From a virus, in IMG/VR virus record IMGVR_UViG_3300035684_000001, positions 64,001-128,000 of that record: a stretch of DNA of 64,000 nt; one strand, 5' to 3'. Made by a program: the position numbers and the translations under genes. Under the pieces are notes generated by a model. It had not been told where the DNA came from and ran no database searches. It was given only the letters and a program-made list of their open reading frames with translations. Each line of letters begins with the position of its first letter. Position 1 is the stretch's first letter. Positions 5,597 to 29,389 of this stretch are shown piece by piece.

Positions 5597-6916
5597 TTAA
5601 GGATGTGGTACAAGCTTACCGTTTTTAACGATAGCTCGCATACTGTCATTTTCTGTTTCCGCAAATCCCATTAACTTATAGAAAGTAACTCGCTTTTCTT
5701 TATAACCATCTTCTGCGTGTGGATGACAATCGAAAATTGTTCCATCTGGCGATTTTTTGACATCTTCTTTAAGAAGCGCCCGCAATTTATACATAATAGC
5801 TTTACTCTCTTCAGGTTTCAATGGCTTTTTGTCAAATGAATCGTTAACTTTAAAATCAATAGTTTTCATTAAAAATTCAATACCTTCCTCGGCTTCTTCT
5901 GTACTTGAATTTACAGTAAACGCTACCTTATTTTTTCCAACCTTAAATGTAGATATTGTACTATTTATTTCAATGTCACCTAGTGCAGATTTTAAGATTT
6001 TTTTCTGTTTTACCTGCTTAAAATTTTCTACTAATGATTTTGTTAAAGTTTTTGCTTCTTTCTTTAACCCTTCAGCAACAATTTTTTTTGCTCCCAATTC
6101 TGCTATTTTTTTAGCTGCTAATCTAATAACTTGGTCAGATGCAATTCCTGCTACTAGCAGAACACCAACCTTGAGGACTGGATTGTCAACTTTGGCTTTG
6201 TCTAACCCTTTTTCTGCACCTTTATAAACTGCTTCTCCTAAAACAGCACTAGCAATTGCGTGGTTTAACGATTCTTTCAACAATAGTCCTATCGTAACAC
6301 CTATACCAACATTGATTGCTATGTTCGTAACGAGTGGAATAGATGCTCTAATAGACTTACCAACTAATTCCTGTTGCTGCGGTGGCGTGTATTTTTCGGG
6401 GTTTGCCAAAGCTTCTGTGTAGAGTTGATATTTGGCAACAGCAAATTCCATTTTTTCTGCAAACGAGCTATTTGCGAGTGGCTCAAGTCCATCAGATTTA
6501 CGAATAGCTTGGGCAAGCGGGTCTTTGTCTCCCCCATAATCTTTTGCCAATTTATCCGCAGATTGTTGAACAAAGCCATCTATTTTTTTCTCTAATTCCG
6601 GAGTTTTTTCTATAGCTTTTGATGTAGCCTTGATTATTTCAGCTATCCCCATTCCTGCAGAAAGTCCGACTCTTTCTCTGAATCCTGGGTCTGTAAGGGA
6701 TAGTTTAATCACATCTTTTGTGATGCCGACTGTTTTAACTGTGGAATCAATTACATCCTTTGCCTCTTTAGTTACTTTAACTGTACCACCACCAAATCTA
6801 CCATTTTCACCTCGGTTTACCCAGTCAGGGTCTTTGTCCCAACCTTCAGCTTTGATCGTCAATTGAATTCCGAGTAGCTGTAATTGGGCTTTTGCTACCG
6901 ATCCTCTTAAATCCAT
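5597..6916 (-). CDS. Putative virion-associated protein with N-terminal R..NGRF motif and C-terminal GNAT-like domain
   Basis: ORF 5597..6934, likely ATG at 6916. Contains DWVNRGENGRFGGG, a hydrophobic middle, and C-terminal RVTFYKLMGF (FY..xGF, GNAT-like). Confidence 0.5.
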   Translation of the reverse strand: MDLRGSVAKAQLQLLGIQLTIKAEGWDKDPDWVNRGENGRFGGGTVKVTKEAKDVIDSTVKTVGITKDVIKLSLTDPGFRERVGLSAGMGIAEIIKATSKAIEKTPELEKKIDGFVQQSADKLAKDYGGDKDPLAQAIRKSDGLEPLANSSFAEKMEFAVAKYQLYTEALANPEKYTPPQQQELVGKSIRASIPLVTNIAINVGIGVTIGLLLKESLNHAIASAVLGEAVYKGAEKGLDKAKVDNPVLKVGVLLVAGIASDQVIRLAAKKIAELGAKKIVAEGLKKEAKTLTKSLVENFKQVKQKKILKSALGDIEINSTISTFKVGKNKVAFTVNSSTEEAEEGIEFLMKTIDFKVNDSFDKKPLKPEESKAIMYKLRALLKEDVKKSPDGTIFDCHPHAEDGYKEKRVTFYKLMGFAETENDSMRAIVKNGKLVPHP

Positions 6917-6920
6917 ATTT

Positions 6921-9900
6921 TTGGTACAATTCAATGAAACTAATATATCACGCTACGCAGGCCACCCCACCCAATGGGGCGGCTTTTGTTGTTTGGGGGG
7001 AATTTTGGAAGAGAGTCTGGATCGGTACGGCTTAGTCGGTCAGTTTAATTTCTTAGTTGCAGACGGCAGTTTTTCTTCCATGAAATCTGTTGTCAAACAC
7101 CTGAGCAACATGGAGAAGGCTGTTGCAGACGCTTCCAAATCCGTAGACAGCAACGGGCTAGCAGGTCAATTTAAATCTGCAGCCCGATCGCTCGACACCT
7201 CCTCCGGCAACATGGCAAAGAGCTTGCAGCCTTTAAAAGCTGAGTTTAGGGTGTTAAAAGCTACTGCGGCAAATATTGATTTTGGAGATGTGCTGGACGA
7301 TCGCCAGTTCAAAAAAGCTACAACTGCTGTCAACACTTACGTTAAAAATCTCAAAGAATTAAGAAAGCAAGTTCAGGGCGAAACGGCAGCGGAGCGGGAG
7401 TTTACGGAAGTCCTCAAACGGCAGCAGCGCGTTATTAAGGACAAACTTGCTTTGCACGATGCTGAGCGCAAGGCTGCGTTTTTCTCTCAAAGAAAGGGTG
7501 AGTTTGGGGCGCTGCAACAAGTTGGGAATATAGCACTCAATCCGCTGAAGCAAGCCGGAAAAGAAGCCATTCAAGTTTTTGCTGGTTTTGACGACAAGAT
7601 GAGCGCGGTGGCAGCTATCTCGCGATCAACGGGCAAGGATTTAGATCGGTTGCGGGGTAAGGCTAAGTTATTGGGGGCGACGACTCGATTTACCGCAGGA
7701 GAGGCTGCGGATGCCGAAAAATACTTGGCGGCAGCGGGCTTTAACGCTCAACAGATTTTTGCAGGCGTTCCTGCAACTTTGGATTTAGCTTCGGCGGGAC
7801 AACTGGGATTGGCGGAATCGGCTGACATCGCTTCCAACGTGCTCAGCGGGATGCGGATGGGCGTTAGCGATTTAGGTCACATTACCGATGTTATGGCGTT
7901 GTCGGCTGCTAGCGCAAATACCAACATTCAGCAGTTGGGTGTAGCGATGAGCTACGCTGCTCCCAATGCTGCACTGTTTGGTGCGGGAATAGAAGAAACC
8001 TCTGCTTTAATTGGGGTGATGTCAAATGCGGGGATTCAGTCCGACAAGGCAGGAACGGCTGCAAGAGGAGCTTTTTTAAAGTTGGCCGCACCTACGGTCA
8101 GAGGTCGAATGGCTTTAATTCAATATGGAATTTCGCTGACCGACACCAGCGGTAAAATGCGGAATATCGTTGATGTGATGCAGGATATCGGTACAAACCT
8201 GCAATTAGATCCAGCTTCTTTAGACTCGATAATTCAAGCTGGCGATGACGTAGAAAAACTGGGACAACTTGCCCAGTCAAAGCAAATTTCTGCATTAAAA
8301 GATATTTTTGGCACAACTGGAATTTCGGGGGCATCGGCCGCAATCAGCCAAATGCAAGAATTTACTCGTCTGAGTTTGGCGGGTAGGGGCAGCTCTTTTG
8401 CTATTGAAGACTACGAAAAATTATTTAAATCTCAGGGTATTGATAAATTAGCCACAGATAAAGATGTTTTCGCTTCGCTGCTGCGAGAAGCGGGCAGCTA
8501 TCAAGATGCGCTACAAAAATTAGATGCTGCTACGATCGCCTTAGTTAAATCCAATGAATATTTAGGAAATCTTTCGAGCACCCAGCTAAGTCAATTGTCA
8601 GGATATTTCCAAATACCCGAAGGTGAGAATTTATTTGATGCGATTTTGGCGACTGCTCCCGACGCGAATGCGGCAGTCAGCAAGCTAACCTCAGCGATGG
8701 GCGAATTAGGGATTGAATTTAAGGGAAAATCCGGCGCAGCGAAAACGATGGCGCAGGTGATGGAAAACAACCTGGCCGGTTCTTTCCGATCGCTCGGTTC
8801 TGCGTTTGAAGCAGTTCAGGTCAATTTGATCGAACCGATCGCCCCAATCGTGCGGGCGATCTCCGACACATTAACTAAGTTGCTGCTGGCGATCGCCAAC
8901 CTTCCTTCCCCAATTCGAGGATTGATTGCCGGAGTTGGGGTGCTTACCGCAGGGTTTGCAGCGGTATCGGTTGCAGTCGGAACAGTTGGTGTAGTGCTGT
9001 TTGGATTTTCGCAAGCTGCGGCAACCGCGACTGCTGCGGGAATTGCACTGCAAGCTAGCGTGATTCCGCTGACCGGATTTTTCCCGGCGGCGATGGCGGC
9101 TTTTGAGGGTACGGCGTCCAACCCGTTCAAGACTGCCTCGTTTGCTGCGGAAGCTTTTTCGGACACGATCGCCTCTACGTCCAAAGATGTCAACTTGGGA
9201 TTGAACGGGATTGCTCGAAATATTGCGGTAGTTTCGAGGTCGCTGATTTCGATGTCGGTATCGTTTGCTCTGTCTCCAATGGGAATCGCGATTGCAAGCT
9301 TCCTTGCACTTAATGCTATTTTGCAACAAATTAACCCAGAAATTAATTTGCTGGGTACTATTTTCAGCGCCGTCAGTTCCATCGCTGGTTTTGCAGTTGG
9401 AATAATTCAAGGATTTGGCGAAGCGCTGCTCGCTGCACTAGATGTTCCAACATCTGTTGCAGGTTCGATGTTGACCGCTCCGTTTGCAGCAGTCAGCAGC
9501 GCTATAGAATATGCAACTGTGGCTTTTGAAACTTGGCGGAAATCCGGGCGGGCGATCGGGGTCGATATTTTTAAATTTGTAGCGCAGCCGTTTCAGCTTG
9601 CAGGCAGGGCGATCGAGACTTCATGGAACTTCACACTGAACTATATCAAGGGCTTGCTGACGCCTTTTGCTGGCTTCGTAGCTCGGATTGGCAAATTGCT
9701 GCAAGGGGGTCTAGCTGAGGCATCGCCGGGTCCGACCTACATGATTCGGGAAAAGTGGGATTACACGATCGCCTTTTTGGAAAAGCTGTTCACCAGAATT
9801 AGAAACGCTGCAGGTTTAGTTAATCGGGCTTTTTTAGGTATTGGAAGTGTAACAGAATCCTCGAAGATGGAAGCTCAGCAACAAATATTGCAAGGGGCGA

Positions 9901-12900
9901 TCAATTTAGTTACTAACTCTGTCAAGAAGCTTTCGGTTATTGGGGGAACTATTACTCAAATCCAGCAATTTGAGCGAAGTATTATTGATGGAGTTAGAGA
10001 AAACTTCGATTTTCTCAGCTTTACACTGCTAACCTTGTCGTCACTGCCTCTAACATTGCTAGCTCAATTAGAAGAAGGGGCAGCACTAATCGTTCCAGAG
10101 CTAGCGTTCATTATTGGAGAAGGAATCCCTAGGGCTTTTTTGTATGCAATGCCTGGGCTGGTCGCGATCGCCACTTCTACGGGATTAATTCAGGGAATTG
10201 AACGGGGATTCATGGGCGCAATCGATGCAATACCGGAATTTCTGGAAAGAATTTCCGACAAAATTTACAATTCCCTCTCTGTCGGGATGAAACAGAAGTT
10301 AAATCAAGGGTTGAGCGAAGGCTTGACATCTTTTGCGCGATCAATGCCTGCAATATTTCCAGGGGGGGTCGCGATCAATGTTGATATCGACAAAAGTTAC
10401 TTAGCAATTAAAGACTTTATTCGAGGTCCGCTAGTAGGACTGATTGCTTACCTCCACCGCGTCGGAGATTTGTCCAAGGAAATTGGTAAGGAAATTTACG
10501 CCGGAATCGAACCAATTTTAAGTTTCAATCCATTTACTTTTTTCCCGCTTTTTTCGGCACTGCCACCCCTGATACCGCTAGTGACTGCTATTTTGCCGAT
10601 GGAAAAGGCACTGGTGTCGCTAGCTAAGTCTCCTTCAGTTCAGGGGATTATGGGATTTTTAACTGGAACCGTTTTACCCGCTGCGCTCAGGACGATCGCG
10701 GCTATTTCTTCTCTAGTTATTTTTACTTTTAACGCGATCGTTACTTTGCCTGTATTGGCGGTATTGCAGGAAGTTATCAGCAGGCTGACTCCAATTACAG
10801 AGATCCTTCGGGCGATCGCGCTTAACGCTCAATCTGTCGCTGCTGCTGTTGGGAGGTCGCTGCTGCTGGCGGTGGATCGCGCAGTAATTGGTATTGCTGC
10901 GCTAATCCTCGAAATTCCCTATATCGGAAAACACTTGTCGGCTGCATTTTTGGTCGGAACCAAAGCCCTAGGCGGATTTTTTCAGTTAATTGCAGCATCT
11001 GCGCCTCGCTACTTAAACTTGCTGCTGAGGTTTTTTCCTACAAAACAATTAGTTGCTCTTTTCTCAAGCTACAGAAAGATTTTTACCGATTTAATGTCGG
11101 GAGTGGTTTACGCATTTAGAGAGGGGTTGAACCCAGTTTCTAATATCTTGATGAAAGCGCTCAATCCGGCAGCAGCTTTCAAGTTCTTGGCTTTTTACAT
11201 CCGAACCAAAGGATTAGCGGGAATTATTAAGAAGGGTGGTTTTGGAGGATTGTCCCAAATATTTAATCTTGCAAACTACATCAACCCTATCGATATTGCA
11301 CTGGGATTGAATAAAAGTTTGAACGAAGTTGCGAGGTTGGTATCGGGAAGTGCAGTTCCTCTGGACTTTATTTCCAGAAAACAAGCTGAAATATTCCAGG
11401 TTTTAGCTACTCCCGCAGCGAGGAGACTAGCTGAAAGAGAGAAGCGTTTGGTATCGCTAGTTGAAATTCTCGAAAGTGCATCGGGTCCGATGAAAGTATT
11501 TATCAAGCTCGTCCAGGGATTGATGATGGTTTCCCCGATCGTCCAGATTGTCAGTCGATTGGGTCTGACAATGCTGTTTTGGTACAACATCCTGAAACCA
11601 GTCAATAAAGAGATGTTGGACGCGATCGCCAATACCAGACTTTTGGGTGTCAGTTTGATGCCCGTCGCCAAGGTGTTGGAAGTCATGCGGTTTGTGGTAG
11701 TCGATCTCGGTGAAATCCTGTTCCGATTCTTAAAGGCGATACCGGGGATGGCTGCAACCGTTATGGATGTCTTTGACAAATTAGGGACAGGTATTGGGGT
11801 GACAATCCACGAAATTGTCGGAGTTTCGTCTATCCTTGCCAATGTTTTCAAATTCTCTGTCATAAACCCGCTAGCGGGCATACTCCTCGCGGTGATAGCG
11901 GTGGCAGACGGTACACTGATTGCAGTATTGGCAACATTTAAGCTGATTCGATTGAAAACTCAGCAGTACGGTGACGCGATCACGGCATTGTTGCGCGGTA
12001 ACTTTGTACCGCTAGTCAAGCAAATTTTTAGTGATTTGTTTGGAGTCATCAACTTCGGGTTTCAGCAGACAGCGATGCGGGCGGTAAGCGCGATCTCCTA
12101 TTTGGGTAAAACAGTAGGGACGATCGTCGGGGCAAGCGCCGCTGAAATTGTCAGGTTAATTCGAGATCCGATCGGTGAAATCACCAGATTAACGGAACTG
12201 TCTGTAAAAAGTTTGGCTGCTGCAACCGCCGGGGTGATGGTTTACGTCCGCCAGTTGCAACTCGATAAATTAATTCGATTTGCTGCGGATTTTTGGCCGG
12301 AAATTTTGGCAGTCGCCAGCGTGTTAGGTAGGATTTATGGTTTACTGAGTCCGATCCAGTTTGCGATCGTGGGACTGATCGAACTCGGCGGATTCTTGTC
12401 CTACGAGTACGCTACCGGATTTCAAAATTTAGATAAAATCATCACCGCTCTCCAGCACCCGATCGACGCATTGAATATGGCGATGCAGGGAATAGCTGGA
12501 TTCCTAGGGTTGTACATCTCACCGGATTTAACTGGGTTTATCGGCAACCTCGCAGAGCAATTTGTCAAATTCCTCCCGGTAATTGGGTCGGGAGTGTTTG
12601 CGATTGCGCTGTTGCTGACGCGGAATATCGGTGGTGCGTTTCAGATGATTTCTAACAACGTGCTCTTGTTTATCGGACGGATTTTGCAAGTTTCCGAGGC
12701 AATTGCAGGGGTGGGTGATCGGGTCAGACAAGTTGCTAGCAGTGCCAACATACAGGTTGGCTTGAGCGAAGTTGCAAATAAAGTGCGCCGCAGATCGACA
12801 GTTGCCGGAATTGCCAACCCGCTAGCTTATTCTCAAGATTTTCAAACCCAGCAGCAGGCAACGTTTCTCGGAGATCAAAGAGTTGCCAAATCTAAAGCAG

Positions 12901-15900
12901 CGCTACGCTATCAAAAGGAGTTAGCCAAAGCCCAGCAACAAGAACAGGCGTTATCGGAACGCGCTCTAATTTCCGAAGTTAAGCGGGGAACTGATTTTGG
13001 TAAGGGATTAGCAGATGCAGAGCGACGGTATTACCTTAAGGACAAAAACGGCATTACCGAGGGGGTGAGCGGAGCTGCTGTAGAAAAACGCCGCAACCGA
13101 TTCGGTATAGAGCAGTACCAAGTTACCGACATCGGTCGCCAACTCCTAAAAATGAGCGGTCAAGGTGGCGAAAACGTCAAGGCGGGGCGGGGCTTGCAAT
13201 TTGAAAACATACGCCGGGAGGCGGCGAAGAGATCCGGGCTAGATGCTGAGTTTTCTCGATTTGGAAATGCGCCGAGCAACGAAGAGTTGGTGAAGTTAGC
13301 CGGTGGCAAAAACGTGGCAATCGACCTTTTGACTAATTTTCAAAAGGCGATGGCTAACTTGCACGTTGAGGATATTAAAGCTGAGTACCTTTACGTGAGT
13401 AAATCAAAATTGCCGCAAGTATCGAAAGATAAACCAGATAGCGAGAGAGCTTTCGATATTCAAGTTCAACGATTCAAGGATAAGGGAAATAAAGATATAG
13501 GTATTAATAGCGTCGCTTCATCGTCAGAGATCCGAAAGGAAATGGAGGCTGCAAAAAAAGCGACCGTCAATGCTAGCACTGCCTTTTATTCAAGGTTGAA
13601 TGCTATTTTAGCTAAGGTTAAAACCTCACCGACTGACTCATCTCCTAGTTCCAAAATGTTTAACCCCGAAGCTGATACGCAAAACTACGCTGATAGGCTA
13701 AAAGCCGCTAAAGCTGTGGACAAGCAAAGGCCACAAGGAGAATTTGAGAGAACTCTTGCAGATATCATTCACACGATCAACGAAAGACAGACTAAGATGA
13801 TCGTTCAAACGGTCACGGGGTTCAATAACTTTGAAGAAGCAAACAAGCAGGCAGCTAGAGAGTTGCAAGAATCTTCTGGGCGATCAAGGCAAGTAGCTAT
13901 AGGTTTTGGCGAGGTAGCAGTACAGGGGGTAAGAAACCTCGGTCATTCAATGCAAGAGTCGTCTAACTTGCTAGAAGGACAGGTTGCTTCCACTCGGAAT
14001 TCTTTGGTTCGTACTTTGTTTGGATGGACTGGAATTCCCAAGATATTAGAAGCTATGCGATTCGATAAAACAATTGCAATTCAAGCGCGAATCGTTCAGG
14101 CTAGAACCGAAAGAATAGCTCGATCTGAAGCTACTGCCGCTTTAGTGTTAAAGAGGGCGCGAGAAAGAGGGCTAGATGCTTTAGTTAAAAACAATCCAGA
14201 ACACGCAAATTTAGATTTACTTCTAGTGAAAATGAGGCAACCAGAAAATAAACAGTTGTATCAATTCTTTAATCAGTTCATGGAGACTGGAAAGTACCAG
14301 CGAGAAGCTACTGGTAACGAAATTACCCAACTAACTGAAATGTTGAAAGCTAGCTTTGGTGAAAAGCGACCTGAGTTTCAGGGAGTAGATAATTTAAAGA
14401 CATTTTTAGACAGATTAAAATCTGCACCCGATCTGAACAAAGAAGATATTCAAAAGTTGCGAAGATATTTGACGCACGGCACGGGGGATCGTGGCAAACA
14501 ACTTAAAGAAAATGAATTTGAAGCATTAGCGAAACAATTAACCAATGCTGGCATAGGAGGAGAAAATGAATTACTGGATTTGCGAACAGCACTTCGCAGA
14601 GATGAGTCACTTGCTACTGTATTCGATCAATATTTGTTAACTGGTAAGTTTGTTTTAAAAGCGAGTCAAGAACAGCAAAATCAAATTGCTGGATTTCTTG
14701 GATTATCTTCGTCCCGTGAACTCAAAAATATTGATCAGATTAAATTAAAAAATCCTTTGGAGCAACTAAAAGTCAATGTTCGGGTTTACCTCGAAAGTAT
14801 AGACGCGGGTTTTGAACGATTCAATCGATCTACAATTAGCCAGATAGATTCCCTAGAATCGAAATTAATTAAAATACCGTTCATGAGTGTAGAGATGGCA
14901 GAAAACATTGTCCGTCCTCTCCGTAACTTTTACGCTGGTATTTACAGATCTGCTTTATCTGCCAAAGATTCATCAATCAAACTAGCTGGCGATCTGTATA
15001 ATGCCGCAGAAGCTAGTGTTAAAGGATCTAAGTTTGTTCAAAGAATTGAAAAACTGAATAAAGATTTTAGAATTGCTCAGCGAAACAGTTTACAACACAT
15101 GATGACAGAAGGGCGCGAGAAAGCCCCGAAAACTCATTATCAATTTATGGGTCAAATGTTTGCGGAGTTGACAAAAACTGACATCAAGGATCGGCAAGTT
15201 CAAGACAAAATACTGCAATCTATTCTCAAGGATCAAAAAGATAGTGAAGGAAATAACATCTCGATCAAAGACAGGCTGCTTAAGTTAGGGATGGGTGATA
15301 GGATTGAAAATATTACTAAAGCACTAGGAAAAGCTTTAGACGTAAATGAGGCTAGAGTTCGTGAGATCGTGGAGAATCCTGATTACACGGCGAAGTCTGT
15401 TGCACCTTATCAATTCTTTTTAGCCAAAGCATTCCCTGATTTAATCAAAAATTTCACCGGGGGAGTGACGTTACTTGCTGCTAAAAGCGGAGCGGGCGGA
15501 TTGATTAAAAAGATAGTTGCAGATATTTCTCCCGCATTAGGTAAACCAGTATTAATTGGACTTTCCAATGTCATCGATCGCGCCCGAATCGCTATGTCAG
15601 TCGGAACCAACCGAATCGCCCGTGAAGTCGAAGGGTTGATCGGGACAAACCCGTTTAGCAATTTCCTTAATAACTTCTCCCGATTTTTAGCTCGCAGTGG
15701 CGATTCGCTGTCCAAGTTTTTTGTTGATCGTGCCAACGGATTTGACGCAGAACGAGCTAAATCTTGGACGGTCAAAATAGTTGATAAAGCAGGAGAACTG
15801 TTCAAGACGGTTGCTGGAGTGTTGGTTCAAGCAGGGAACCAAGCGAAATCGCAGCAGGGCGGAATTTTAGGGGCGATCGGCAATTTATTCTCTGGAGTTA

Positions 15901-18900: not shown

Positions 18901-21900
18901 CCTCTCAAGCAGAATATGCAGGTTTGGCAACGAAGATTACTGTACAGAAAAAAGGTCTTGGCGGACTGCTGGGTCAAACAGAAGATGTCTACAAAATTAA
19001 TCAAGCCGGTCAAAAATATATAGAAGAGCAATTGGCAGCATCTGCCAAAAATCAAGAAGGGATGTTTTCTAATGCTAGGTTGAGTGCTACGGCTGCATCT
19101 GTGGGAGCCAAGATTCCCGATCAATCGCTGTTAGATAAAGCTTTAATTGGGCAAGATTCATTGAATGATGCCATAAAAATTGCACCGGGGCAACCTGGAA
19201 AGTCGCAACAAATCCTACAACTGGAATCAATAAACAGCATATTAGCTGAAATTTTAACAGTTATAATTGGGCTGCAACCAGCATCAGTTCAAATACCCAG
19301 TAAACAGGTAATTGCTGAACCGCCCCGTGAAAAACTTCTACCATTAGAGGTTAAAGAAACAAGTTCTGCACAGAAATTCTTTGGCTTTTTAAGTCAAAGT
19401 ATAAAAGAAAATGCGCCAAAAATAACCAACTCTATTCAAGGTACTGTTAAATCTGGGATTGACAAAACTAAAGATTTTATTTCTTCACGAAAGCAAGCTT
19501 TTATCGAAAAGAAAACGTACTTGGCAGCTAAAGCAGGTGCGGGTATATTTGGTGGCACAGTTCCAAAAACCCCCGACGCGGTTGGTGTCACTGGAACGAT
19601 TGGCTTTGGTGATTTAGGTGCTAGCAGCACAAATGCAGCATGGGCTAATACCGCTTCAGCTATCACGGCGAACATTAATTCCTTGGTACAGCCAGCGGAG
19701 GATTCTGGGTACGAACTGCAAAAAGCTGTTTCTGAAGGTTCTCCCGGCCCAACTTACTGGATTCGACATTACTGGGAAAAAACTGTCGGGGCGATCGCTG
19801 GGTGGATGGGCGACATCCAGTCAACCGCTCAAGAAACCGGATCGGTTCTGCGCGGTAGCTTAACAAATTCAGCTAGCAAGATATTGCTATCGCCACCAAA
19901 AAACGACCTCAAAAGTCAGGCGATTCGATCTGCAAGTTTCTTCATGCTAGCTGTGGGTGATCGCTATCAGTATCTAGCCGATCGCGGAATAGGTAGCGCC
20001 AGTATTCTGTTCGCACCTGGGATGGAGTATGTCACAAGCAGCCTGAGTCAACTGGGTGAAGATTTAGTTGATTTTACCGGGCGATCGGCAAGAGCCTTGC
20101 TAACTCTAAATTTTGTGGAATTAGGGGACGCAGCTCACGACTTCTTCGGTAACTTCAAATATGGGGTGGGAGGGGTACTGTCGGGATTCAGTAGCATGAG
20201 TTTATCGGCGATCGCCTTCGGACTGTTTTCGCTGTCCGGTATTTCTCCGCTGCTTCTAGTCCTGGGGGGTGTCGCATTTACGGCTGCGGTAATCGTTGCG
20301 AACTTCTTGGGTATCCGAACGATTTTAACTGGGCTAATCAAAATTGGGATTGGTGCTGGCAAGATTTTGGCTGGAGTGCTGTGGGGATTAGTGGAAGCAG
20401 CGAGTGCTTTTAAAACGATCGCCCTAGGTATATTGCCCGCGCTGAAAGGAGATTTCACTCTAATCCAAGACGGCTTCCGGCGGCTGGGGTTTGCGTTTGA
20501 GAATTTTCAGCGTAGCGCGAGCGACGGGTTGAAGACGATCGCCCAAGGTTCAATCCAGATATTGCAGGGATTTGGTGAAGCGCTTGAACAAATTTTCCGA
20601 CCGTTAGGTTTTACCATCAAACAGACAACCGAATCTATCCAGAACTTTTTTTCAGCTTTCCGGTCTGGTGAGCAGGCGGGAGAAATGGTCGCATCTATAT
20701 TGATTGCTGCGGTCAAATCATTCACCAATGCTATCGGTTTTGCCATTGACAGTATTAAAAAGCATTTTCCAGTAATCAAGCAGCTTTTGGTAGAGCAACT
20801 TGATCTCGGAGTGCAGTCGATCAAAGACAAAATCTTTCAGGTTCAGGAAGCGATCAAGAATTTTACATTCAAAGATGCGATCACCAGTATCAGTCAACTC
20901 TTTGGTTCCATAGACGGATCTGTTGAGTCAGTTCCCGATCGCATCAAAAGATTAGCACCGGGAATCACTGAAGCTCTGACAGCACCTCTTAGATATGTTG
21001 GAGACTTCTGGCGGAGCTTTTTCAACACAATTCTCGCTGAGCTACCCCCAGAGATTGTGGCGACGATTCAGAAAGGGTTTGGCGACGCAATCTCCGCAGT
21101 TGAGCCGACGTTCCGGCAAATCCTCAAGACGTTGAACATTGAGGAATACTTTGATCGTGCGATAGTCAAGGTTCAAACTTCCTGGCAACACCTAAAAAAT
21201 TGGCTGGGGCAGAGTAACTTATTTCAAGTTGTGGGCGATCGGCTGCGCGAGGCTTTTAAGCCAGAAAACCTGTCTCAAGCTTTTCTTTCAACTATCAATA
21301 TCTTAGAGGCTGCATGGAGCAAGTTCGTTGGTTGGATGAGCGCAACTAATTTATTTGATTGGTTGTTCGCTCTCTTGCTCAAAGTCGGATCGGAATTTAC
21401 ATTGTTTGGAGATTTACTAAGAGAGAAGTGGTCGGATGTTCAAAAGTTGCTGGCATCTGGACAAGTATTCCAAGGATTCTTTGAGGGGATGAAGGATTTA
21501 GGTAGTAAACTAACTACCTGGGCGCTCGAAATTGGCTTAAAATTCGAGATACCAGCGATTCAAGACTTGTTTGTCAAGATTGCTTTATTAGGGGAAAATC
21601 TTAGCAATACAACGGCATTTATTCGAGAAAAATGGAATAAATTATCTGTTTGGTTAGCTGAGACTCCTCTGATTCCAGGGGCTTTAGACTTCCTAGTAGC
21701 ACTTGGTACAAAGTTTGGCGAGACAATATCTTGGATTAAATCTGAATGGCCCAATTTTATCACCTTCTTAACGTCGGCAGATTTGTTTGCGAATATATCT
21801 GCAAAGATGAAGAGTTTTGGCGAATCAATTCCCTCTTTGTTTGAAGAAATAAAAGGACAGGTAGCTAAAATTATTCCTAGCATGAATGGTGCAATCGGAT

Positions 21901-24900
21901 CTATCCAGGTTCAATGGCAACGTCTCACAGAATTCTTGAATAAAAAGGGTCTGTTTACACGGGTGTTTGCGGGACTGAGTGAAGCTCTGAATGAAAAGGG
22001 CTTGTTTACTAGGATTTTTACGGGAATCCAAGATATTCCGATCGCCCTTGGGAAAGTAGCAGACTGGATTAAGGAGAAATGGCAAAAGTTTGCCGTAGAG
22101 TTTCAAACGATATTGACTCCTATCGTAGACTTTGCTAAATGGCTGGGTCAAACCTTGATCAACTTATTGAACCATAGCCCGACGGTCAAGATCCCTGAAG
22201 CTTGGAAGGAAGCAGTCACCAAAATAACGAATTCGTTGTTGGCACTGATAGCGCCTGCGAGTTGGGTGGCAAGTCAAATTATCGAGAAGTTTAATTTAGA
22301 TGCAGTAAAAAATGGGTTTAAATCCCTGACTGGATTTATCTCTAATTTTGCAACCAGCTTGTTTTCTGAAGTTCAACAGCCACTGACAGACTTGATTGGC
22401 ATCGTAGTTTCTGCAAGTAAGTCAGTCATTGATTTTGGCAAAACTTTGTTCGACATTGCCAAGGCGGTAAATAGTGGGGCGATCGCCTCCGATGAGATGA
22501 CATCTAAATTAACGGGTGTGTCATCCGCCGTCAGACATTTGGGTGAATTCTTAGGAGTAATTCTACGGAGTTTAGGGCAGTTCTCTCAAGGATTAACTTC
22601 CGCTGGTGATGATGCCGATCGCGCATCTTCTGCGGGGAAAGGGTTGGGGCAAGTTGTAGGAAAGATGTTAGCTGGCATAGTTAGTTTCTCTACGACAGTC
22701 CTGCCACCTTTGTTCAAAGTGTTGTGGGTGTTTACGCAGATAGGTATTGAGATTTCAGCGTTCGCACTAAAGTTTGTATGGGCATTTCGCTTTGTACTGG
22801 ATTGGCCTAGTCGGGTAATGACCGCTGTTTTAGGTTTATACAATGCGGTCATGAGGTTTGTCGCGCTGTTGTCGTCATTCTCTCGTAAATCTAAGGAAGT
22901 TTTTGTAGGATTACAGGAAGGTTTTGCAAGCTTTAAGACTCAACTAGCAGGTGTTGCGCTGACTGCGAGTGAAATTGCAAGCAGTTTCCTCGGTTTCGCT
23001 AAAGACATCGGTACTTTCGGCTCGAAGATGGGAAGTGTCATAGCTGAAATATTAATCGGGCTGAAAGATGTAGGTGTTGCGCTTTTCAAGCTCGGCTTAG
23101 ATGTTTCCCTACCATTCGACATCTTCAGTGTGTTTAAAGGGATTCCCGACATAATTTCTAGCATAGGTGCTCTTGGCAGTAACGCCACTGAATTAAAAGG
23201 AAGGTTGATTTCAGAGTTGGGAGAATTGGGTGCAGCGATCACCCAGTTTCTCGAACAACCACTGAAAGCGGTGGGGGCAATTTGGGAAAAAACCGGAGGC
23301 AAAATTGTCGGGGCGATCGCGGGTATCGGTAGAAAAGCCAAGCAAACCGGACAACAATTGCAGGGCGATTTGTCGGAAGCGTCGCCGGGTCCGACTTACT
23401 GGATTCGCAAAAATTGGCTCAATACTACAGAGACTATCCAGAGTCAGTTGTCGGACTTGGCGCTGTCTGCAAAAATTGAAGGCAACGCAATTTACAAATT
23501 CTTAGACCGATCGCTCACCGCGTTATCTCCATCTAAAATTGCCGAAGCCGGGGAAGCACTTGGCGGACTGAAGTTTGATGCGCGACTAGCGATGTCGAAC
23601 GTGGGTCGTAATCCGAAAGTTGACACGCAAAGTAACCTTCATGTCATTACCGCACGGCAGTTGAGATTGAATGAACTCTACAAACAAGGGACGATCGACA
23701 GCAAAGTCTACACCCAAGGTTTGAAGAATTTAGAATCTGCCCACAAGCGGGTAACGCAAGCAGTCGAACAGGATACCGCTGCTAGGAAACAAGCTGGTGA
23801 AAGCGTTAGATCTTTGTCGCTGTCGATCGGTTCCGCACTGTCGAACATTGCCCCGCAGCTAGCGACGCCGATATTCATGTTCAATGACTTAGTGACTGCA
23901 TTCCTAGATATTCGGACTGCAATACCGGGGATGCGAGCTTTTTACGCAGCGAACGCAGCAAGTTCCGTAGCTGCTGACAGCGCGATCTCCGCATCCGCTT
24001 TAACCAAAGCTGGAATCGTGGGGGGTGCTAACGGGGCGATCGCCGCTTCTTACGGGTTTGTTGCGGGTGCTGCCAAGCTTGCCTATAGGTCAATGATTGT
24101 ACCGTTGCTGCCGTTTTTACCTTTGATATTAGGGATTAGCTCTGCCATATTTTTGCTGTACCGAGCTTACAAGGACAACATTGGCGACATTCAAGGGGTT
24201 ATGGAAAATGCAAAAAATAGTCTAGGTAATTTTGGATCGTGGATTCTTGAGTCTATTTCCAGTGTTGCTTCTGGAATTGTTGGAATGATTGCAGGCGTCC
24301 TTGGCCCATTGATTGAGGTCAGCAAATTTGCTTTTACTGTATTTGGGGTATTCGTTGAGTCACTACTGAAGATTGGCGCTGCTTTAGCTGTATTTTCTTT
24401 CCTGGGTCAAATAGGGAGTCTGTTTGTCAGCGCTGGGGCATTTGTTACTGGATTGGGGCTAGCAATTGTTGAATTTTCGACGATCGCTGGAAGTGTAGCC
24501 GCAGTATTTAGCGGAGTATTAGTTCCAGTGATTCTCAGTGGATTGAGTGCAATCTTTGCTGCGGCAGCCGCAGTAATCACCCCCTTTCTTCCTTTGATTC
24601 CATTAATTCTAGGAATTGTCACGGTCGGGTGGGTGCTGGGGAAAGTCTTCAACTTTGTTGGCAGTATTATCGGTGGCGTTTTCGGGGGGATTTGGAATTC
24701 GAGTACCGAAGTGGTTGGAACACTATTTCAGGAAATCAGTAATGTCTGGAGCGCACTCGCGGATCTAGGTGATCAAATTGTCCAACCATTCGCCCAAGCT
24801 TTTGGGGCTATCGCCAGTATCTTTGGCGGGGTAGATGGAAACATATCAGGGGTTGCCTCAACAATCATCCATGTGTTGCTGATTCCAGTTAAGCTTCTAG

Positions 24901-25880
24901 CTGCTGGCTTAATTACAATCATCAAGGCAATTTCATTTACGCTAATTGGCGTAATTAAAACGCTAGGGTTTGTTTTCAAGGTTGTCTCGAAGATTGTTCA
25001 ATCGGTTGCAATTGTCGGTACAGTGATCGCCGGAACAGTCGCGACTTTAGCCTTGATAGCAAATTTTGGTGTCGTGCTTGCTGGGATAACAGGAGCTCTT
25101 GGGGCGATCGGTACTGCTGTATCGGGAGTTGGCAGTGCCTTGATGGCGATCGGAGGCGTATTTGTCACAGTTGTCATTCCAGTCATTATGGGCGGCATTG
25201 GGGCTATAATTGCAGGTATTTCTGCTGCGGTGGTTGCAGCGTCACCTTTCTTGGCGATAATTCTTGGAGTTGTGGCGATCGGGTGGGTTTTGAAAGAAAC
25301 TTTCGTTGTAGTTGGAGGTGCTATTACTAGAGTTTTCCAAGGAATTTGGAACTTAATTCAGTGGGTTGTCACTAATTCAATGGGGATTCTAGCTAATATC
25401 CCCTTCGTTGGCGGATTGTTTGCTCCTTCATTGCGGAGTCAACCTTTACCGAGCCACCCACTACAGGTTCAGCCAGTACAGCGTTATGCGGTCGGTGGTT
25501 TGATATCGGGTCCGGGAACATCTACAGGCGATCGCGTTCCTATTTTGGCTTCACCTGGGGAGTATGTTATCAACGCTGCTGCTACGCGATCAAACCTACC
25601 GTTGTTGGAATCGATTAATCAGGGCGATCGGGTAGAAGCTTCTAACCTCCGCGCATTGCCCGTTCCCGCAACTCCAATTCCCCTTCCCCCTGTTGCATCT
25701 TCGCAGGCGACAGAGTATAACGTTCAATTAATTTTTGGAGATATTATAGTACAGGGTGCAAATCCAGGTTTTGCAGCAGAAGAATTATTACGCGAACTCA
25801 TGAAGCATTTGGAATCACCGCAAGCACAAAGAGTTATTCGCAATCAATTGCGCGATATTGTTGAAAAAGCGAAGCAATAA
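6921..25880 (+). CDS. Giant phage tail tape-measure protein (TP901/PhageMin_Tail core), ~6,300 aa
   Basis: TP901-type core (FDDKMSAVAAIS..AKLLGATTRFTAGEAADAEKYLAAAGF..GVPATLDLASAG..MENNLAGSFRSLGSAFE), long amphipathic and Trp-periodic helices, and C-terminal YAVGGLISGPGTSTGDRVPILASPGEYVINAAA. True start is more likely TTG 7005 or ATG 7080 than 6921. Confidence 0.93.
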   Translation: MVQFNETNISRYAGHPTQWGGFCCLGGILEESLDRYGLVGQFNFLVADGSFSSMKSVVKHLSNMEKAVADASKSVDSNGLAGQFKSAARSLDTSSGNMAKSLQPLKAEFRVLKATAANIDFGDVLDDRQFKKATTAVNTYVKNLKELRKQVQGETAAEREFTEVLKRQQRVIKDKLALHDAERKAAFFSQRKGEFGALQQVGNIALNPLKQAGKEAIQVFAGFDDKMSAVAAISRSTGKDLDRLRGKAKLLGATTRFTAGEAADAEKYLAAAGFNAQQIFAGVPATLDLASAGQLGLAESADIASNVLSGMRMGVSDLGHITDVMALSAASANTNIQQLGVAMSYAAPNAALFGAGIEETSALIGVMSNAGIQSDKAGTAARGAFLKLAAPTVRGRMALIQYGISLTDTSGKMRNIVDVMQDIGTNLQLDPASLDSIIQAGDDVEKLGQLAQSKQISALKDIFGTTGISGASAAISQMQEFTRLSLAGRGSSFAIEDYEKLFKSQGIDKLATDKDVFASLLREAGSYQDALQKLDAATIALVKSNEYLGNLSSTQLSQLSGYFQIPEGENLFDAILATAPDANAAVSKLTSAMGELGIEFKGKSGAAKTMAQVMENNLAGSFRSLGSAFEAVQVNLIEPIAPIVRAISDTLTKLLLAIANLPSPIRGLIAGVGVLTAGFAAVSVAVGTVGVVLFGFSQAAATATAAGIALQASVIPLTGFFPAAMAAFEGTASNPFKTASFAAEAFSDTIASTSKDVNLGLNGIARNIAVVSRSLISMSVSFALSPMGIAIASFLALNAILQQINPEINLLGTIFSAVSSIAGFAVGIIQGFGEALLAALDVPTSVAGSMLTAPFAAVSSAIEYATVAFETWRKSGRAIGVDIFKFVAQPFQLAGRAIETSWNFTLNYIKGLLTPFAGFVARIGKLLQGGLAEASPGPTYMIREKWDYTIAFLEKLFTRIRNAAGLVNRAFLGIGSVTESSKMEAQQQILQGAINLVTNSVKKLSVIGGTITQIQQFERSIIDGVRENFDFLSFTLLTLSSLPLTLLAQLEEGAALIVPELAFIIGEGIPRAFLYAMPGLVAIATSTGLIQGIERGFMGAIDAIPEFLERISDKIYNSLSVGMKQKLNQGLSEGLTSFARSMPAIFPGGVAINVDIDKSYLAIKDFIRGPLVGLIAYLHRVGDLSKEIGKEIYAGIEPILSFNPFTFFPLFSALPPLIPLVTAILPMEKALVSLAKSPSVQGIMGFLTGTVLPAALRTIAAISSLVIFTFNAIVTLPVLAVLQEVISRLTPITEILRAIALNAQSVAAAVGRSLLLAVDRAVIGIAALILEIPYIGKHLSAAFLVGTKALGGFFQLIAASAPRYLNLLLRFFPTKQLVALFSSYRKIFTDLMSGVVYAFREGLNPVSNILMKALNPAAAFKFLAFYIRTKGLAGIIKKGGFGGLSQIFNLANYINPIDIALGLNKSLNEVARLVSGSAVPLDFISRKQAEIFQVLATPAARRLAEREKRLVSLVEILESASGPMKVFIKLVQGLMMVSPIVQIVSRLGLTMLFWYNILKPVNKEMLDAIANTRLLGVSLMPVAKVLEVMRFVVVDLGEILFRFLKAIPGMAATVMDVFDKLGTGIGVTIHEIVGVSSILANVFKFSVINPLAGILLAVIAVADGTLIAVLATFKLIRLKTQQYGDAITALLRGNFVPLVKQIFSDLFGVINFGFQQTAMRAVSAISYLGKTVGTIVGASAAEIVRLIRDPIGEITRLTELSVKSLAAATAGVMVYVRQLQLDKLIRFAADFWPEILAVASVLGRIYGLLSPIQFAIVGLIELGGFLSYEYATGFQNLDKIITALQHPIDALNMAMQGIAGFLGLYISPDLTGFIGNLAEQFVKFLPVIGSGVFAIALLLTRNIGGAFQMISNNVLLFIGRILQVSEAIAGVGDRVRQVASSANIQVGLSEVANKVRRRSTVAGIANPLAYSQDFQTQQQATFLGDQRVAKSKAALRYQKELAKAQQQEQALSERALISEVKRGTDFGKGLADAERRYYLKDKNGITEGVSGAAVEKRRNRFGIEQYQVTDIGRQLLKMSGQGGENVKAGRGLQFENIRREAAKRSGLDAEFSRFGNAPSNEELVKLAGGKNVAIDLLTNFQKAMANLHVEDIKAEYLYVSKSKLPQVSKDKPDSERAFDIQVQRFKDKGNKDIGINSVASSSEIRKEMEAAKKATVNASTAFYSRLNAILAKVKTSPTDSSPSSKMFNPEADTQNYADRLKAAKAVDKQRPQGEFERTLADIIHTINERQTKMIVQTVTGFNNFEEANKQAARELQESSGRSRQVAIGFGEVAVQGVRNLGHSMQESSNLLEGQVASTRNSLVRTLFGWTGIPKILEAMRFDKTIAIQARIVQARTERIARSEATAALVLKRARERGLDALVKNNPEHANLDLLLVKMRQPENKQLYQFFNQFMETGKYQREATGNEITQLTEMLKASFGEKRPEFQGVDNLKTFLDRLKSAPDLNKEDIQKLRRYLTHGTGDRGKQLKENEFEALAKQLTNAGIGGENELLDLRTALRRDESLATVFDQYLLTGKFVLKASQEQQNQIAGFLGLSSSRELKNIDQIKLKNPLEQLKVNVRVYLESIDAGFERFNRSTISQIDSLESKLIKIPFMSVEMAENIVRPLRNFYAGIYRSALSAKDSSIKLAGDLYNAAEASVKGSKFVQRIEKLNKDFRIAQRNSLQHMMTEGREKAPKTHYQFMGQMFAELTKTDIKDRQVQDKILQSILKDQKDSEGNNISIKDRLLKLGMGDRIENITKALGKALDVNEARVREIVENPDYTAKSVAPYQFFLAKAFPDLIKNFTGGVTLLAAKSGAGGLIKKIVADISPALGKPVLIGLSNVIDRARIAMSVGTNRIAREVEGLIGTNPFSNFLNNFSRFLARSGDSLSKFFVDRANGFDAERAKSWTVKIVDKAGELFKTVAGVLVQAGNQAKSQQGGILGAIGNLFSGVKKFFSNVFGNKDIAKLQKQKEAAERLAQSEGDSRLGLAAKRRAATLGDRIEYTKQFNSPASKAKAALFGLAELLKTASQKVGQGADALNAQSRQAAIPQSETTIREASRGGRRHYRSLERRGLIDSADVSIDSGMAEYASNILPLTEKISASILKGASSAARGISTYFQGAATRTETAWQEATNRITGNNWWTMVKRAAWAGVKIVTSLNHRASDVTSAAWENTEHSTAANMNQMAQVAAGTGAEIAQDMQRAAQVTQQSIAHIPQVAEQATTKSVGFFHKLVGAMGGVGKAGMAVGGAVTAAGFAAQTAFFSLQNMGFIDEATGQSLYKVTELFTLVGAVGGLAAPVLTALGASFGAIVSISGATIAGLTGIGGAIAGAMGVAALPLAPLIAGVAAIGLAAGGLYLAFKNNFLGIGNLARSTGDMLSQALSAPISFITAAWQRFIDAFGGKLMAIIQPALNVAQGLINALNHNPTEKIPTAWEGAVASITGLIQGMVAPAKGVGEEMSEVLQADDAKQRRKTEFINSIALGATGEKQKLSWQENLQIGFGKVVAALTSVLSPLDSVGKKLDIQAQLLHAQIRQQQTAQAQTLWRFATNKERNKNLATRIEGMLQRRFSREAPQQLSHSARTMGGFVPRSGTTATAPPMLGALQQSGAGKGISKFGSLLKPIFGLGMLGEVGTLMLGIGGITTALSVLTLAFTTDFADIRTKTVKLTTAIGHLFSGAVQTIQRAWTGFVHWFLDMPLVDTALEMALGLIDALNHNPTEKIPAAWEGAVERISGAINWLITPAKEVAGILTGVFSPVSDFFSSKAKQANLVVSQGKEAVVNTKNSLTNTYAGMEGFFTQGSRAIESELHLHGQIFLSIVSTLNNIASYTKSLLSLLDKTQEETRSSAVAQAPDLGKSSVLAQRKYQIGFGLKGEGWKKRTEQSRQKDISNDLGQQKRGWNLFDRVHIPDFIEIRNVFDKESAFRTQIQAQMQKEELKIADTILQGLNSKSLSSQAEYAGLATKITVQKKGLGGLLGQTEDVYKINQAGQKYIEEQLAASAKNQEGMFSNARLSATAASVGAKIPDQSLLDKALIGQDSLNDAIKIAPGQPGKSQQILQLESINSILAEILTVIIGLQPASVQIPSKQVIAEPPREKLLPLEVKETSSAQKFFGFLSQSIKENAPKITNSIQGTVKSGIDKTKDFISSRKQAFIEKKTYLAAKAGAGIFGGTVPKTPDAVGVTGTIGFGDLGASSTNAAWANTASAITANINSLVQPAEDSGYELQKAVSEGSPGPTYWIRHYWEKTVGAIAGWMGDIQSTAQETGSVLRGSLTNSASKILLSPPKNDLKSQAIRSASFFMLAVGDRYQYLADRGIGSASILFAPGMEYVTSSLSQLGEDLVDFTGRSARALLTLNFVELGDAAHDFFGNFKYGVGGVLSGFSSMSLSAIAFGLFSLSGISPLLLVLGGVAFTAAVIVANFLGIRTILTGLIKIGIGAGKILAGVLWGLVEAASAFKTIALGILPALKGDFTLIQDGFRRLGFAFENFQRSASDGLKTIAQGSIQILQGFGEALEQIFRPLGFTIKQTTESIQNFFSAFRSGEQAGEMVASILIAAVKSFTNAIGFAIDSIKKHFPVIKQLLVEQLDLGVQSIKDKIFQVQEAIKNFTFKDAITSISQLFGSIDGSVESVPDRIKRLAPGITEALTAPLRYVGDFWRSFFNTILAELPPEIVATIQKGFGDAISAVEPTFRQILKTLNIEEYFDRAIVKVQTSWQHLKNWLGQSNLFQVVGDRLREAFKPENLSQAFLSTINILEAAWSKFVGWMSATNLFDWLFALLLKVGSEFTLFGDLLREKWSDVQKLLASGQVFQGFFEGMKDLGSKLTTWALEIGLKFEIPAIQDLFVKIALLGENLSNTTAFIREKWNKLSVWLAETPLIPGALDFLVALGTKFGETISWIKSEWPNFITFLTSADLFANISAKMKSFGESIPSLFEEIKGQVAKIIPSMNGAIGSIQVQWQRLTEFLNKKGLFTRVFAGLSEALNEKGLFTRIFTGIQDIPIALGKVADWIKEKWQKFAVEFQTILTPIVDFAKWLGQTLINLLNHSPTVKIPEAWKEAVTKITNSLLALIAPASWVASQIIEKFNLDAVKNGFKSLTGFISNFATSLFSEVQQPLTDLIGIVVSASKSVIDFGKTLFDIAKAVNSGAIASDEMTSKLTGVSSAVRHLGEFLGVILRSLGQFSQGLTSAGDDADRASSAGKGLGQVVGKMLAGIVSFSTTVLPPLFKVLWVFTQIGIEISAFALKFVWAFRFVLDWPSRVMTAVLGLYNAVMRFVALLSSFSRKSKEVFVGLQEGFASFKTQLAGVALTASEIASSFLGFAKDIGTFGSKMGSVIAEILIGLKDVGVALFKLGLDVSLPFDIFSVFKGIPDIISSIGALGSNATELKGRLISELGELGAAITQFLEQPLKAVGAIWEKTGGKIVGAIAGIGRKAKQTGQQLQGDLSEASPGPTYWIRKNWLNTTETIQSQLSDLALSAKIEGNAIYKFLDRSLTALSPSKIAEAGEALGGLKFDARLAMSNVGRNPKVDTQSNLHVITARQLRLNELYKQGTIDSKVYTQGLKNLESAHKRVTQAVEQDTAARKQAGESVRSLSLSIGSALSNIAPQLATPIFMFNDLVTAFLDIRTAIPGMRAFYAANAASSVAADSAISASALTKAGIVGGANGAIAASYGFVAGAAKLAYRSMIVPLLPFLPLILGISSAIFLLYRAYKDNIGDIQGVMENAKNSLGNFGSWILESISSVASGIVGMIAGVLGPLIEVSKFAFTVFGVFVESLLKIGAALAVFSFLGQIGSLFVSAGAFVTGLGLAIVEFSTIAGSVAAVFSGVLVPVILSGLSAIFAAAAAVITPFLPLIPLILGIVTVGWVLGKVFNFVGSIIGGVFGGIWNSSTEVVGTLFQEISNVWSALADLGDQIVQPFAQAFGAIASIFGGVDGNISGVASTIIHVLLIPVKLLAAGLITIIKAISFTLIGVIKTLGFVFKVVSKIVQSVAIVGTVIAGTVATLALIANFGVVLAGITGALGAIGTAVSGVGSALMAIGGVFVTVVIPVIMGGIGAIIAGISAAVVAASPFLAIILGVVAIGWVLKETFVVVGGAITRVFQGIWNLIQWVVTNSMGILANIPFVGGLFAPSLRSQPLPSHPLQVQPVQRYAVGGLISGPGTSTGDRVPILASPGEYVINAAATRSNLPLLESINQGDRVEASNLRALPVPATPIPLPPVASSQATEYNVQLIFGDIIVQGANPGFAAEELLRELMKHLESPQAQRVIRNQLRDIVEKAKQ
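6961..6993 (+). terminator. Hairpin plus U-tract immediately upstream of the tape-measure gene
   Basis: GCCACCCCA-cccaa-TGGGGCGGC followed by TTTTGTTGTTT. Confidence 0.45.
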
Positions 25881-25946
25881 AATACGCAATCGTGTGTTAT
25901 TATTAACAGACGACACAAAACAAATTTTGGATTAAAACGTAAAATT

Positions 25947-26237
25947 ATGGCGGTCAAAAAAGAAATCAAGTATCAAATAGCATTCCCGGAATACATTCCG
26001 GAAAGTGCGGTACACTTAATGCCTAAAAAAGAATTGTGGGGCATTGACAAACGATGTGGAACTCATGCTACTAGAATTGCTGCCATCAGAAGTCAATTAC
26101 CAGACTATGCAGGCTTTTCGGATGAACAGGTTAAATACCATTATCAATGTATTTATCGAAACCTCAGACACTGGAAAGTCGTAAAAGCTGATAGTCTTCC
26201 AGACTTAGCAGTTGTTCGACAAAGTTTTAAAGAATGA
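25947..26237 (+). CDS. Hypothetical protein
   Basis: 96-aa ATG ORF after an AT-rich promoter-like gap. Confidence 0.6.
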   Translation: MAVKKEIKYQIAFPEYIPESAVHLMPKKELWGIDKRCGTHATRIAAIRSQLPDYAGFSDEQVKYHYQCIYRNLRHWKVVKADSLPDLAVVRQSFKE

Positions 26238-26320
26238 GTTTAATTACGATAAAACTTGCTAAAGTCGTGTGCAAACTGTGCTACAATTAGGTTTAAACAC
26301 AAATCAAGCAATGTTAAATC

Positions 26321-27310: not shown

Positions 27311-27320
27311 TGTGTTAAAT

Positions 27321-29363: not shown

Positions 29364-29389
29364 TGTATTGTAAAAGAAAAAGCGGTTGA

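Follow-up and report, generated by a model that had tools for sequence, protein, structure and literature searches.

What does an unbroken 19-kb reading frame encode in a viral genome, and how long a tail would its product specify? The frame lies at 6921-25880 on the plus strand of the window, by which is meant the whole stretch of 64,000 nucleotides analyzed here, corresponding to bases 64,001-128,000 of the 188,553-bp IMG/VR viral contig IMGVR_UViG_3300035684_000001 (G000). Positions are those of the window unless the genome is named. A first-pass annotation had called the product a tape measure protein of some 6,300 amino acids (aa) and had proposed a tail of nearly 1 micrometer. In our judgment the product is rather likely to be the genuine and complete tape measure of an uncultivated contractile phage of ~189 kb, from the lineage of a Nostoc element, and its full length would act as the ruler for a tail of ~0.95-1.0 micrometers.

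The tape measure gene

The gene is a single open reading frame (ORF) of 6,319 codons plus stop, without an internal stop, set in a stop-to-stop frame of 6,337 codons. Its defining parts are as follows.

6921..25880 (+): tape measure, maximal ORF of 6,319 aa (from the ORF, domain matches and the ratio of nonsynonymous to synonymous substitution, dN/dS)
7551..8363 (+): TP901-type core, aa 211-481 (PF10145 at aa 246-464), with many invariant columns among 11 homologs
25302..25676 (+): conserved tape measure C-terminal motif, YAxGGLxSGPGTSTGDRVP...ASPGE (from PHROG matches and tblastn)

The core is matched by TIGR01760 (tape_meas_TP901; E 5.5e-55, 186.8 bits against a curated cut-off of 28.8) and by PF10145 (E 1.3e-39, 136.6 bits against a cut-off of 33.2), and 15 PHROG families named "tail length tape measure" fit residues 1 to ~1,100. 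At the other end of the chain several further PHROG tape measure families fit residues ~6128-6255 (phrog_25241, E 5.5e-15; phrog_13338, E 5e-8), and tblastn with the C-terminal motif matches the tape measure C-termini of TM4-like mycobacteriophages, Burkholderia phages and Pseudanabaena phage Pan1. By these matches the product is confirmed as a TP901-type tail tape measure with a common C-terminal motif, and the uninterrupted frame, the core and the motif described in the first-pass annotation all stand. It is an extreme member of a known family, neither a new kind of system nor unique, nor the largest of its clade.

The TTG codon at 6921 overlaps the start of a divergent upstream gene on the opposite strand, and alignments with homologs begin only at residue ~25-34. 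For these two reasons the real start is probably the TTG at 6990 or 7002, giving a protein of ~6,292-6,296 aa. Scans with Pfam and PHROG found no enzyme domain in the protein, nor were DxDxD or HExxH motifs found; the tape measure itself contains no lysin domain.

Relatives and selection

A word-indexed homolog search, confined to proteins of 3,475-11,059 aa, gave 10 homologs of 6,321-7,596 aa with 24-88% identity, originating from JGI, ENA, Logan and NCBI assemblies. Together with the tape measure these make 11 proteins (6,319-7,596 aa); they can be aligned from end to end, and invariant positions occur throughout the chain. When aa 1-1200 were searched exhaustively by HMMER against 1.84 billion representative proteins, and the best 150 of 37,632 hits listed, ~30 further 50%-identity clusters of 3,995-7,556 aa stood at the top. 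There are thus at least 40 full-length relatives of 3,995-7,596 aa from independent assemblies, and the family reaches 8,170 aa in an ortholog from Nostoc sp. C052. The relative P0018 (7,312 aa) is found on a contig of 242,445 bp.

The architecture is kept along with the size. Among the 41 relatives of at least 3,995 aa that were checked, the core is at aa ~150-470 in most, and the C-terminal motif forms the extreme end in almost all, the exceptions being P0047, in which it lies at aa ~4525-4572 of 6,881, and P0033. Differences in size among relatives take the form of block insertions at a few hot spots. For the 7,596-aa homolog P0006, from a Logan assembly, a DnaJ domain (PF00226) is precomputed; it exemplifies the addition of cargo to a member of the family.

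The sister contig G001 (IMGVR_UViG_3300036939_000082; 188,942 bp) is 88% identical, and its tape measure gene aligns with that of G000 with only 46 gap columns and a synonymous divergence of 0.2-0.57. The dN/dS ratio between the two is 0.05-0.18 in each of 16 windows of 400 codons.

The contractile tail

A sheath gene, which the first-pass annotation had proposed to look for, was found as a 1,000-aa candidate just beyond the window, with a tube candidate next to it; a possible hub lies inside the window.

Genome 129,856-132,858 (L007:3856-6858), just past the window end and ~40 kb downstream of the tape measure: candidate tail sheath, 1,000 aa
Genome 132,886-133,452 (L007:6886-7452), directly after the sheath: candidate tube, 188 aa
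51064..55470 (-): candidate central hub/spike, 1,468 aa, with a weak match to phrog_430 (gp5-type hub and tail lysozyme; E 1.8e-6) over aa 16-110 only

The C-terminal third of the sheath candidate fits PHROG 23 (phrog_23), "tail sheath," with E 1.4e-16, and in a comparison with sheath chains of the PDB it matches 9ezm_A (E 2e-8), followed by 8bky, 8bl4 and Afp3 (E 2e-8 to 4e-3). The gene is kept in G001 and in the Nostoc element. Two of the 21 homologs of the tube candidate carry PF06841 (T4 gp19). Its AlphaFold2 (AF2) model is of moderate quality, with a predicted local distance difference test (pLDDT) score of 69, and nearly every one of its best matches in a Foldseek search of the PDB (E ≤ 1e-3) is a tube protein from a contractile system, headed by Afp1, Pvc1, T4 gp19 and the P1 tube (E 8e-5 to 1e-3; template modeling [TM] score 0.35-0.57). 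A P2 gpI-like wedge protein is indicated by PF09684 (Tail_P2_I, 23.6 bits against 20.6), the baseplate search also gave a weak match to phrog_150 (E 6e-5), and portal and head decoration proteins and a weak capsid match occur near the sheath and tube.

Judged by this set of genes the phage is contractile-tailed (myovirus-type). The first-pass annotation had suggested as much from a spike and a chaperone; it is the sheath and tube genes past the window end, with the weak gp5-like hub match, that bear the suggestion out, the Peptidase_S74 chaperone being irrelevant to the question.

Two features of this region are recorded in their own right. The sheath candidate is unusually large and has at aa ~304-377 an insert resembling fiber or distal tail proteins (phrog_1980, E 5e-18; PDB "distal tail protein gp20"); with such a domain inserted, the exterior of the sheath may be decorated. 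An ORF at genome 133,409-134,275 (L007:7409-8275) overlaps the 3′-end of the tube gene by 44 nt, is read in a different frame and codes for IPT/TIG (Ig-like) domains, which may represent an Ig-like extension of the tube made by programmed frameshift.

The Nostoc element and the host

When PLSDB was searched by tblastn with the clade-specific middle of the tape measure, a single record was recovered, pC052_F of Nostoc sp. C052 (NZ_CP040278.1), a circular element of 223,442 bp from a pure culture isolated from the liverwort Blasia pusilla. Its RefSeq annotation includes a "phage tail tape measure protein," WP_179070682.1, at 20766..45278. This ortholog is an intact ORF of 8,170 aa, collinear from end to end with the tape measure at 25-46% identity, and the N-terminal core, the repeated modules and the C-terminal motif are common to both. 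Sheath, tube, large terminase, portal, capsid-region and baseplate proteins are likewise shared between pC052_F and the record at 27-48% identity (sheath, 1,001 aa in pC052_F, 48%; tube, 40%; terminase, 44%; portal, 48%). The element differs from the present one in its longer tape measure, in being a 223-kb circular replicon of a cultured strain, and in having been annotated automatically only.

Since it encodes a large terminase, portal, sheath, tube and 8,170-aa tape measure, the "plasmid" pC052_F is, on its gene content, a phage genome or phage-plasmid. The presence there of an orthologous tape measure together with virion genes supports the occurrence of the lineage in a filamentous cyanobacterium. 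The filamentous-cyanobacterial host supposed in the first-pass annotation thus holds for the lineage, by way of the Nostoc sp. C052 element, and not for this contig itself. The element also carries cas5d, Csx3, DndB, TnpB/IS607, nrdJ and several DNA methyltransferases (loci L011, L025 and L026).

The phage histidine kinase, looked up in a protein atlas, offered no useful indication of the host. The presence of the cyanobacterial clock regulator Pex in the genome was not confirmed, the only match being a weak, generic one to PadR (26.5 bits against a cut-off of 101.8), and it is not used as host evidence. A literature search on the lineage, on the Nostoc plasmid as a phage and on very long-tailed cyanophages found no relevant paper.

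Predicted tail length and mode of action

Tape measures of T4 (590 aa, 92.5 nm) and of phage G (2,893 aa, 450 nm) both give 0.156 nm per residue (PMC8570332). At 0.15-0.156 nm per residue, the ~6,300 residues found here predict a tail of ~0.95-1.0 micrometers, about twice the longest contractile tail that we found described (phage G, 450 nm), and the 8,170-aa Nostoc protein predicts ~1.25 micrometers.

The tape measure would act as in T4, P2 and phage G. A few copies, held at the baseplate hub by the C-terminal motif, would extend as a largely helical rod, around which the gp19-like tube and then the 1,000-aa sheath would polymerize, stopping at the N-terminal end. The tail would then consist of ~240 tube and sheath rings, with ~1,400 copies of each protein. 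On infection, the hydrophobic blocks would exit the tube and help to build a channel across the envelope.

Comparison with other tape measures

In the Thermus phages P23-45 and P74-26, too, the tape measure is of giant size and contains membrane-like segments, and it predicts or sets a tail of ~1 micrometer (PMC10034513, PMC10770324). The first-pass annotation had put the tape measures of these phages at about 5,000 aa, in agreement with 5,002 aa for P23-45 gp96 (PMC10770324) and 5,006 aa for that of P74-26, annotated at 52470..67490. The Thermus phages, however, are siphoviruses with a non-contractile tail, and their tape measures are ~1,300 residues shorter and show no detectable sequence similarity to the protein described here (BLASTP, no hit at E 1e-3). 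Moreover, a virion RNA polymerase (DFDGD) and a metallopeptidase form part of the Thermus protein, and motif, Pfam and PHROG scans found neither here.

Bacillus phage G gp183 is likewise the tape measure of a jumbo myovirus, its 2,893 aa and the 450-nm contractile tail following the scaling of 0.156 nm per residue (PMC8570332). It does not reach half the size of the present protein, ends in C-terminal lysin domains and lies in the classical sheath-chaperone-tape measure order, whereas in the present genome a gene of its own (33782-35296) encodes the lysin and the tail genes are dispersed. With the TP901-1 Tmp, TIGR01760 and PF10145 family the protein shares an N-terminal core scoring far above the curated cut-offs and a C-terminal motif common to many members. 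Typical members measure 600-1,500 aa and occur in siphoviruses and in P2/Mu-like myoviruses; the present protein is 4-10 times longer and, unlike them, has ~5,000 residues that are confined to its own clade. The "moraphages" (PMC12619734) are an unrelated, T4-like group.

Internal layout

Between the core and the C-terminal motif the following elements were distinguished.

8700..12750 (+): first of the long hydrophobic blocks, rich in Gly/Ala, aa ~600-1950, containing several membrane-helix-like segments and kept in homologs (Kyte-Doolittle profile and a crude 19-residue scan)
9555-9812 (+): copy of the SPGPTYWIR module, aa 879-964 (chunked self-BLAST)
12771..16370 (+): charged, predicted all-helical stretch, aa 1951-3150, 25-32% charged residues (weak single-sequence AF2)
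17004..18284 (+): two copies of a ~135-aa module with LNHNPTEKIPxAWEGAV, aa 3362-3497 and 3654-3788 (chunked self-BLAST, E 6e-21 to 1e-10)
19572..19901 (+): copy of the ~100-aa SPGPTYWIR module, which occurs three times in all (chunked self-BLAST, E 6e-10 to 3e-12)
21183..22040 (+): six degenerate repeats, each ~38-56 aa long and patterned W..(F/L)..(W/F)L...LF, aa ~4755-5040 (regex scan and spacing)
22062-22277 (+): third copy of the LNHNPTEKIPxAWEGAV module, aa 5048-5119 (chunked self-BLAST)
23145-23537 (+): copy of the SPGPTYWIR module, aa 5409-5539 (chunked self-BLAST)
24018..25310 (+): C-terminal hydrophobic block, aa ~5700-6130, with ~13 membrane-helix-like segments (hydrophobicity scan)

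About one-third of the chain is strongly hydrophobic, with ~25 membrane-helix-like segments, as would suit the known part of ejected tape measures in forming channels. In a single-sequence AF2 model, aa 1951-3150 come out as 68% helix, free of strands, at a pLDDT of only 39, a weak result used for its secondary-structure content alone; it agrees with a helical rod but is not proof of one.

Self-BLAST of the whole protein showed no internal repeats, a limit of that method, as modest repeats emerged when the chain was compared in chunks. They amount to two module types of 70-140 aa, each in three copies, and the six degenerate W/F repeats; the C-terminal region also contains a duplication (aa 5839-5926 and 6064-6144). 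Residues P936, G937 and P938 of the SPGPTYWIR module are invariant across homologs. Internal repetition being so small, the length of the tape measure is not a repeat artifact, and expansion or collapse of tandem repeats was rejected as its source.

Weighing the alternatives

Several observations weigh against a full-length ruler in a contractile phage of filamentous cyanobacteria. The number of residues need not equal the length of the ruler, since the P23-45 tape measure carries a folded polymerase. The ~5,000 residues between the core and the C-terminal motif match no Pfam or PHROG family and, as the sole fold attempt reached a pLDDT of 39, they may include folded cargo modules. The sheath and tube calls rest on PHROG, on sequence matches to the PDB and on a fold of moderate confidence (pLDDT 69; TM 0.35-0.57), and the Pfam models for sheath (PF04984) and tube (PF04985, PF06841) have no match in the record. 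A tail assembly chaperone was not identified, and there is no G/GT-type pair directly upstream of the tape measure, since the gene there is divergent and on the other strand. The gene order is not tube-chaperone-tape measure-hub, with the upstream neighbor on the opposite strand and sheath and tube ~40 kb away; in the TP901-type family that order is a habit and not part of the protein's definition. The Nostoc link is one at the level of the lineage and not for this particular contig. A tube gene 56% identical is present on the 51.6-kb contig L027 (JBIPLY010000571.1) of a Lake Mendota metagenome-assembled genome labeled Acetobacteraceae; it was the only relative in a second scan of species-representative genomes, the first having found none, and L027 is probably a phage contig mis-binned into a bacterial genome and not host evidence. 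Finally, no particle of the lineage has been seen, and no paper describing the lineage was found.

The most substantial competing explanation is that only part of the protein sets the length, while large parts, for example the hydrophobic blocks (aa 600-1950 and 5700-6130) or the repeated modules, would be cargo, either packed or folded, whose ejection serves to form a long channel across the envelope or some function inside the cell. In that case the tail would be clearly shorter, at ~0.4-0.7 micrometers. The P23-45 tape measure, with its folded virion RNA polymerase in the first ~1,100 residues (PMC10770324), provides a precedent; the strongly hydrophobic third of the chain with its ~25 membrane-helix-like segments, the DnaJ domain of P0006 and the block insertions by which the relatives differ in size all point the same way. 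Yet neither an enzyme nor any other domain was detected in the ~5,000 residues in question, DxDxD and HExxH motifs are absent, and the 1,200 residues sampled are predicted, at low confidence, to be entirely helical without a compact fold. Hydrophobic segments, moreover, are commonplace in ordinary tape measures to which the length rule applies, and phage G, lysin domains included in its 2,893 aa, still lies at 0.156 nm per residue. We therefore regard a cargo-bearing ruler as unlikely, while giving it appreciable weight.

Some tape measures are trimmed during tail maturation, lambda gpH being one, and the 6,300-aa product might similarly be a polyprotein cleaved in assembly, with one fragment as the ruler and the others in separate roles. 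The two module types, in three copies each, could mark the boundaries of such units. No protease domain or recognizable cleavage signal was found, however, and nearly every relative has the core N-terminal and the anchoring motif at the extreme C-terminus, as expected if both ends of the chain matter; cleavage of this kind appears improbable. More improbable still is a relic or non-virion use, in which a plasmid-like replicon forms no particles, or tailocin-like ones, and the gene sets the tail of no infectious phage. The deposition of the Nostoc relative as a circular plasmid in a pure culture and the provirus label given to G001 by IMG/VR would suit this explanation, but purifying selection is strong across the 19 kb; no gene for terminase, portal, capsid, sheath, tube or baseplate is broken, and all are conserved among members that are far apart; and the two metagenome contigs are circularly permuted relative to each other, which a phage genome that is packaged or circular would lead one to expect. 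That the frame is an assembly chimera, a possibility raised in the first-pass annotation, or a run-on produced by sequencing error can be given almost no credence, and no observation in its favor was made. The same architecture recurs in independent JGI, ENA, Logan and NCBI assemblies at 24-89% identity, the finished circular replicon pC052_F has the gene too, and codon-level selection is seen in every window; the chimera is accordingly rejected on its independent full-length homologs and on purifying selection over the whole length.

Genome and surrounding genes

G000 and G001 are collinear and circularly permuted with respect to each other: 1-37 kb of G000 corresponds to 27->1 kb of G001, and 59-188 kb to 165->35 kb. 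This permutation suggests that each of the contigs is in essence the complete genome, ~189 kb in size, whose map would be circular, or terminally redundant and circularly permuted. CheckV estimated completeness at 67% for G000 and 98% for G001, the latter being labeled a provirus in IMG/VR; the value for G000 is probably too low.

The virion genes are scattered over the record. Pfam and PHROG scans of the immediate neighbors of the tape measure, including the small downstream ORFs, gave no family match. Other genes of the window are as follows.

5597..6934 (-): divergent upstream gene, 445 aa, no family (Pfam and PHROG scans)
33782..35296 (+): cell-wall hydrolase, GH19 and M23 peptidase (PF00182, PF01551; phrog_181 endolysin, E 6.5e-30)
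35856..36974 (+): tail fiber/spike with Peptidase_S74 intramolecular chaperone (PF13884, E 1.2e-11; phrog_4636 tail spike, E 3.4e-62)

A compact operon at 29779-33121 (-), situated between the tape measure and the lysin/fiber block, encodes a histidine kinase, a single-domain response regulator and a REC-containing protein of 301 aa, an unusual signaling module for a phage. At 42210-44096 (+), an archaeal-type thymidylate synthase-like domain (TIGR03283, E 1e-36, below the cut-off) and a C-terminal pterin-binding DUF4346 are joined in one protein of 515 aa. The gene is followed by a MazG-like one, and the two may form a nucleotide modification module. A PAPS reductase-like protein at 48420-49223 (-) (phrog_424, E 1.5e-48) adjoins a TnpB-like gene at 49635-50840. 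The 1,758-aa protein at 2-3790 (-), which continues upstream to genome 62,514, has an Eco57I-like methyltransferase region and SNF2/DEAD/ResIII helicase motifs.

Implications

Beyond the single genome, we consider the chances evenly balanced that jumbo phages of ~190-245 kb are widespread in filamentous cyanobacteria and bear contractile tails of ~1.0-1.25 micrometers, exceeding the Thermus siphovirus record and more than double the length of the tail of phage G. The predicted length can be tested by microscopy, since the cultured and sequenced Nostoc sp. C052 carries an orthologous circular element of 223 kb. Should the tail prove shorter, the tape measure would be a second, independent case of one loaded with cargo, after P23-45.

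If the tail follows the ruler rule, it would hold the record length among all viruses, and the known size range of contractile injection machines would be doubled. Questions would then be raised about the fidelity with which a 1-micrometer sheath is assembled, its metastability and the propagation of its contraction, as well as about the role of an ejected 680-kDa protein in the cyanobacterial envelope. Each such tail would need ~1,400 or more copies of the 110-kDa sheath protein. As for its purpose, a tail of this length may serve to cross the sheath and extracellular polymeric substances of the host, as proposed in the first-pass annotation: contraction would drive the tube several hundred nanometers, which might take it across the gelatinous sheath and the thick envelope of a Nostoc-like host.

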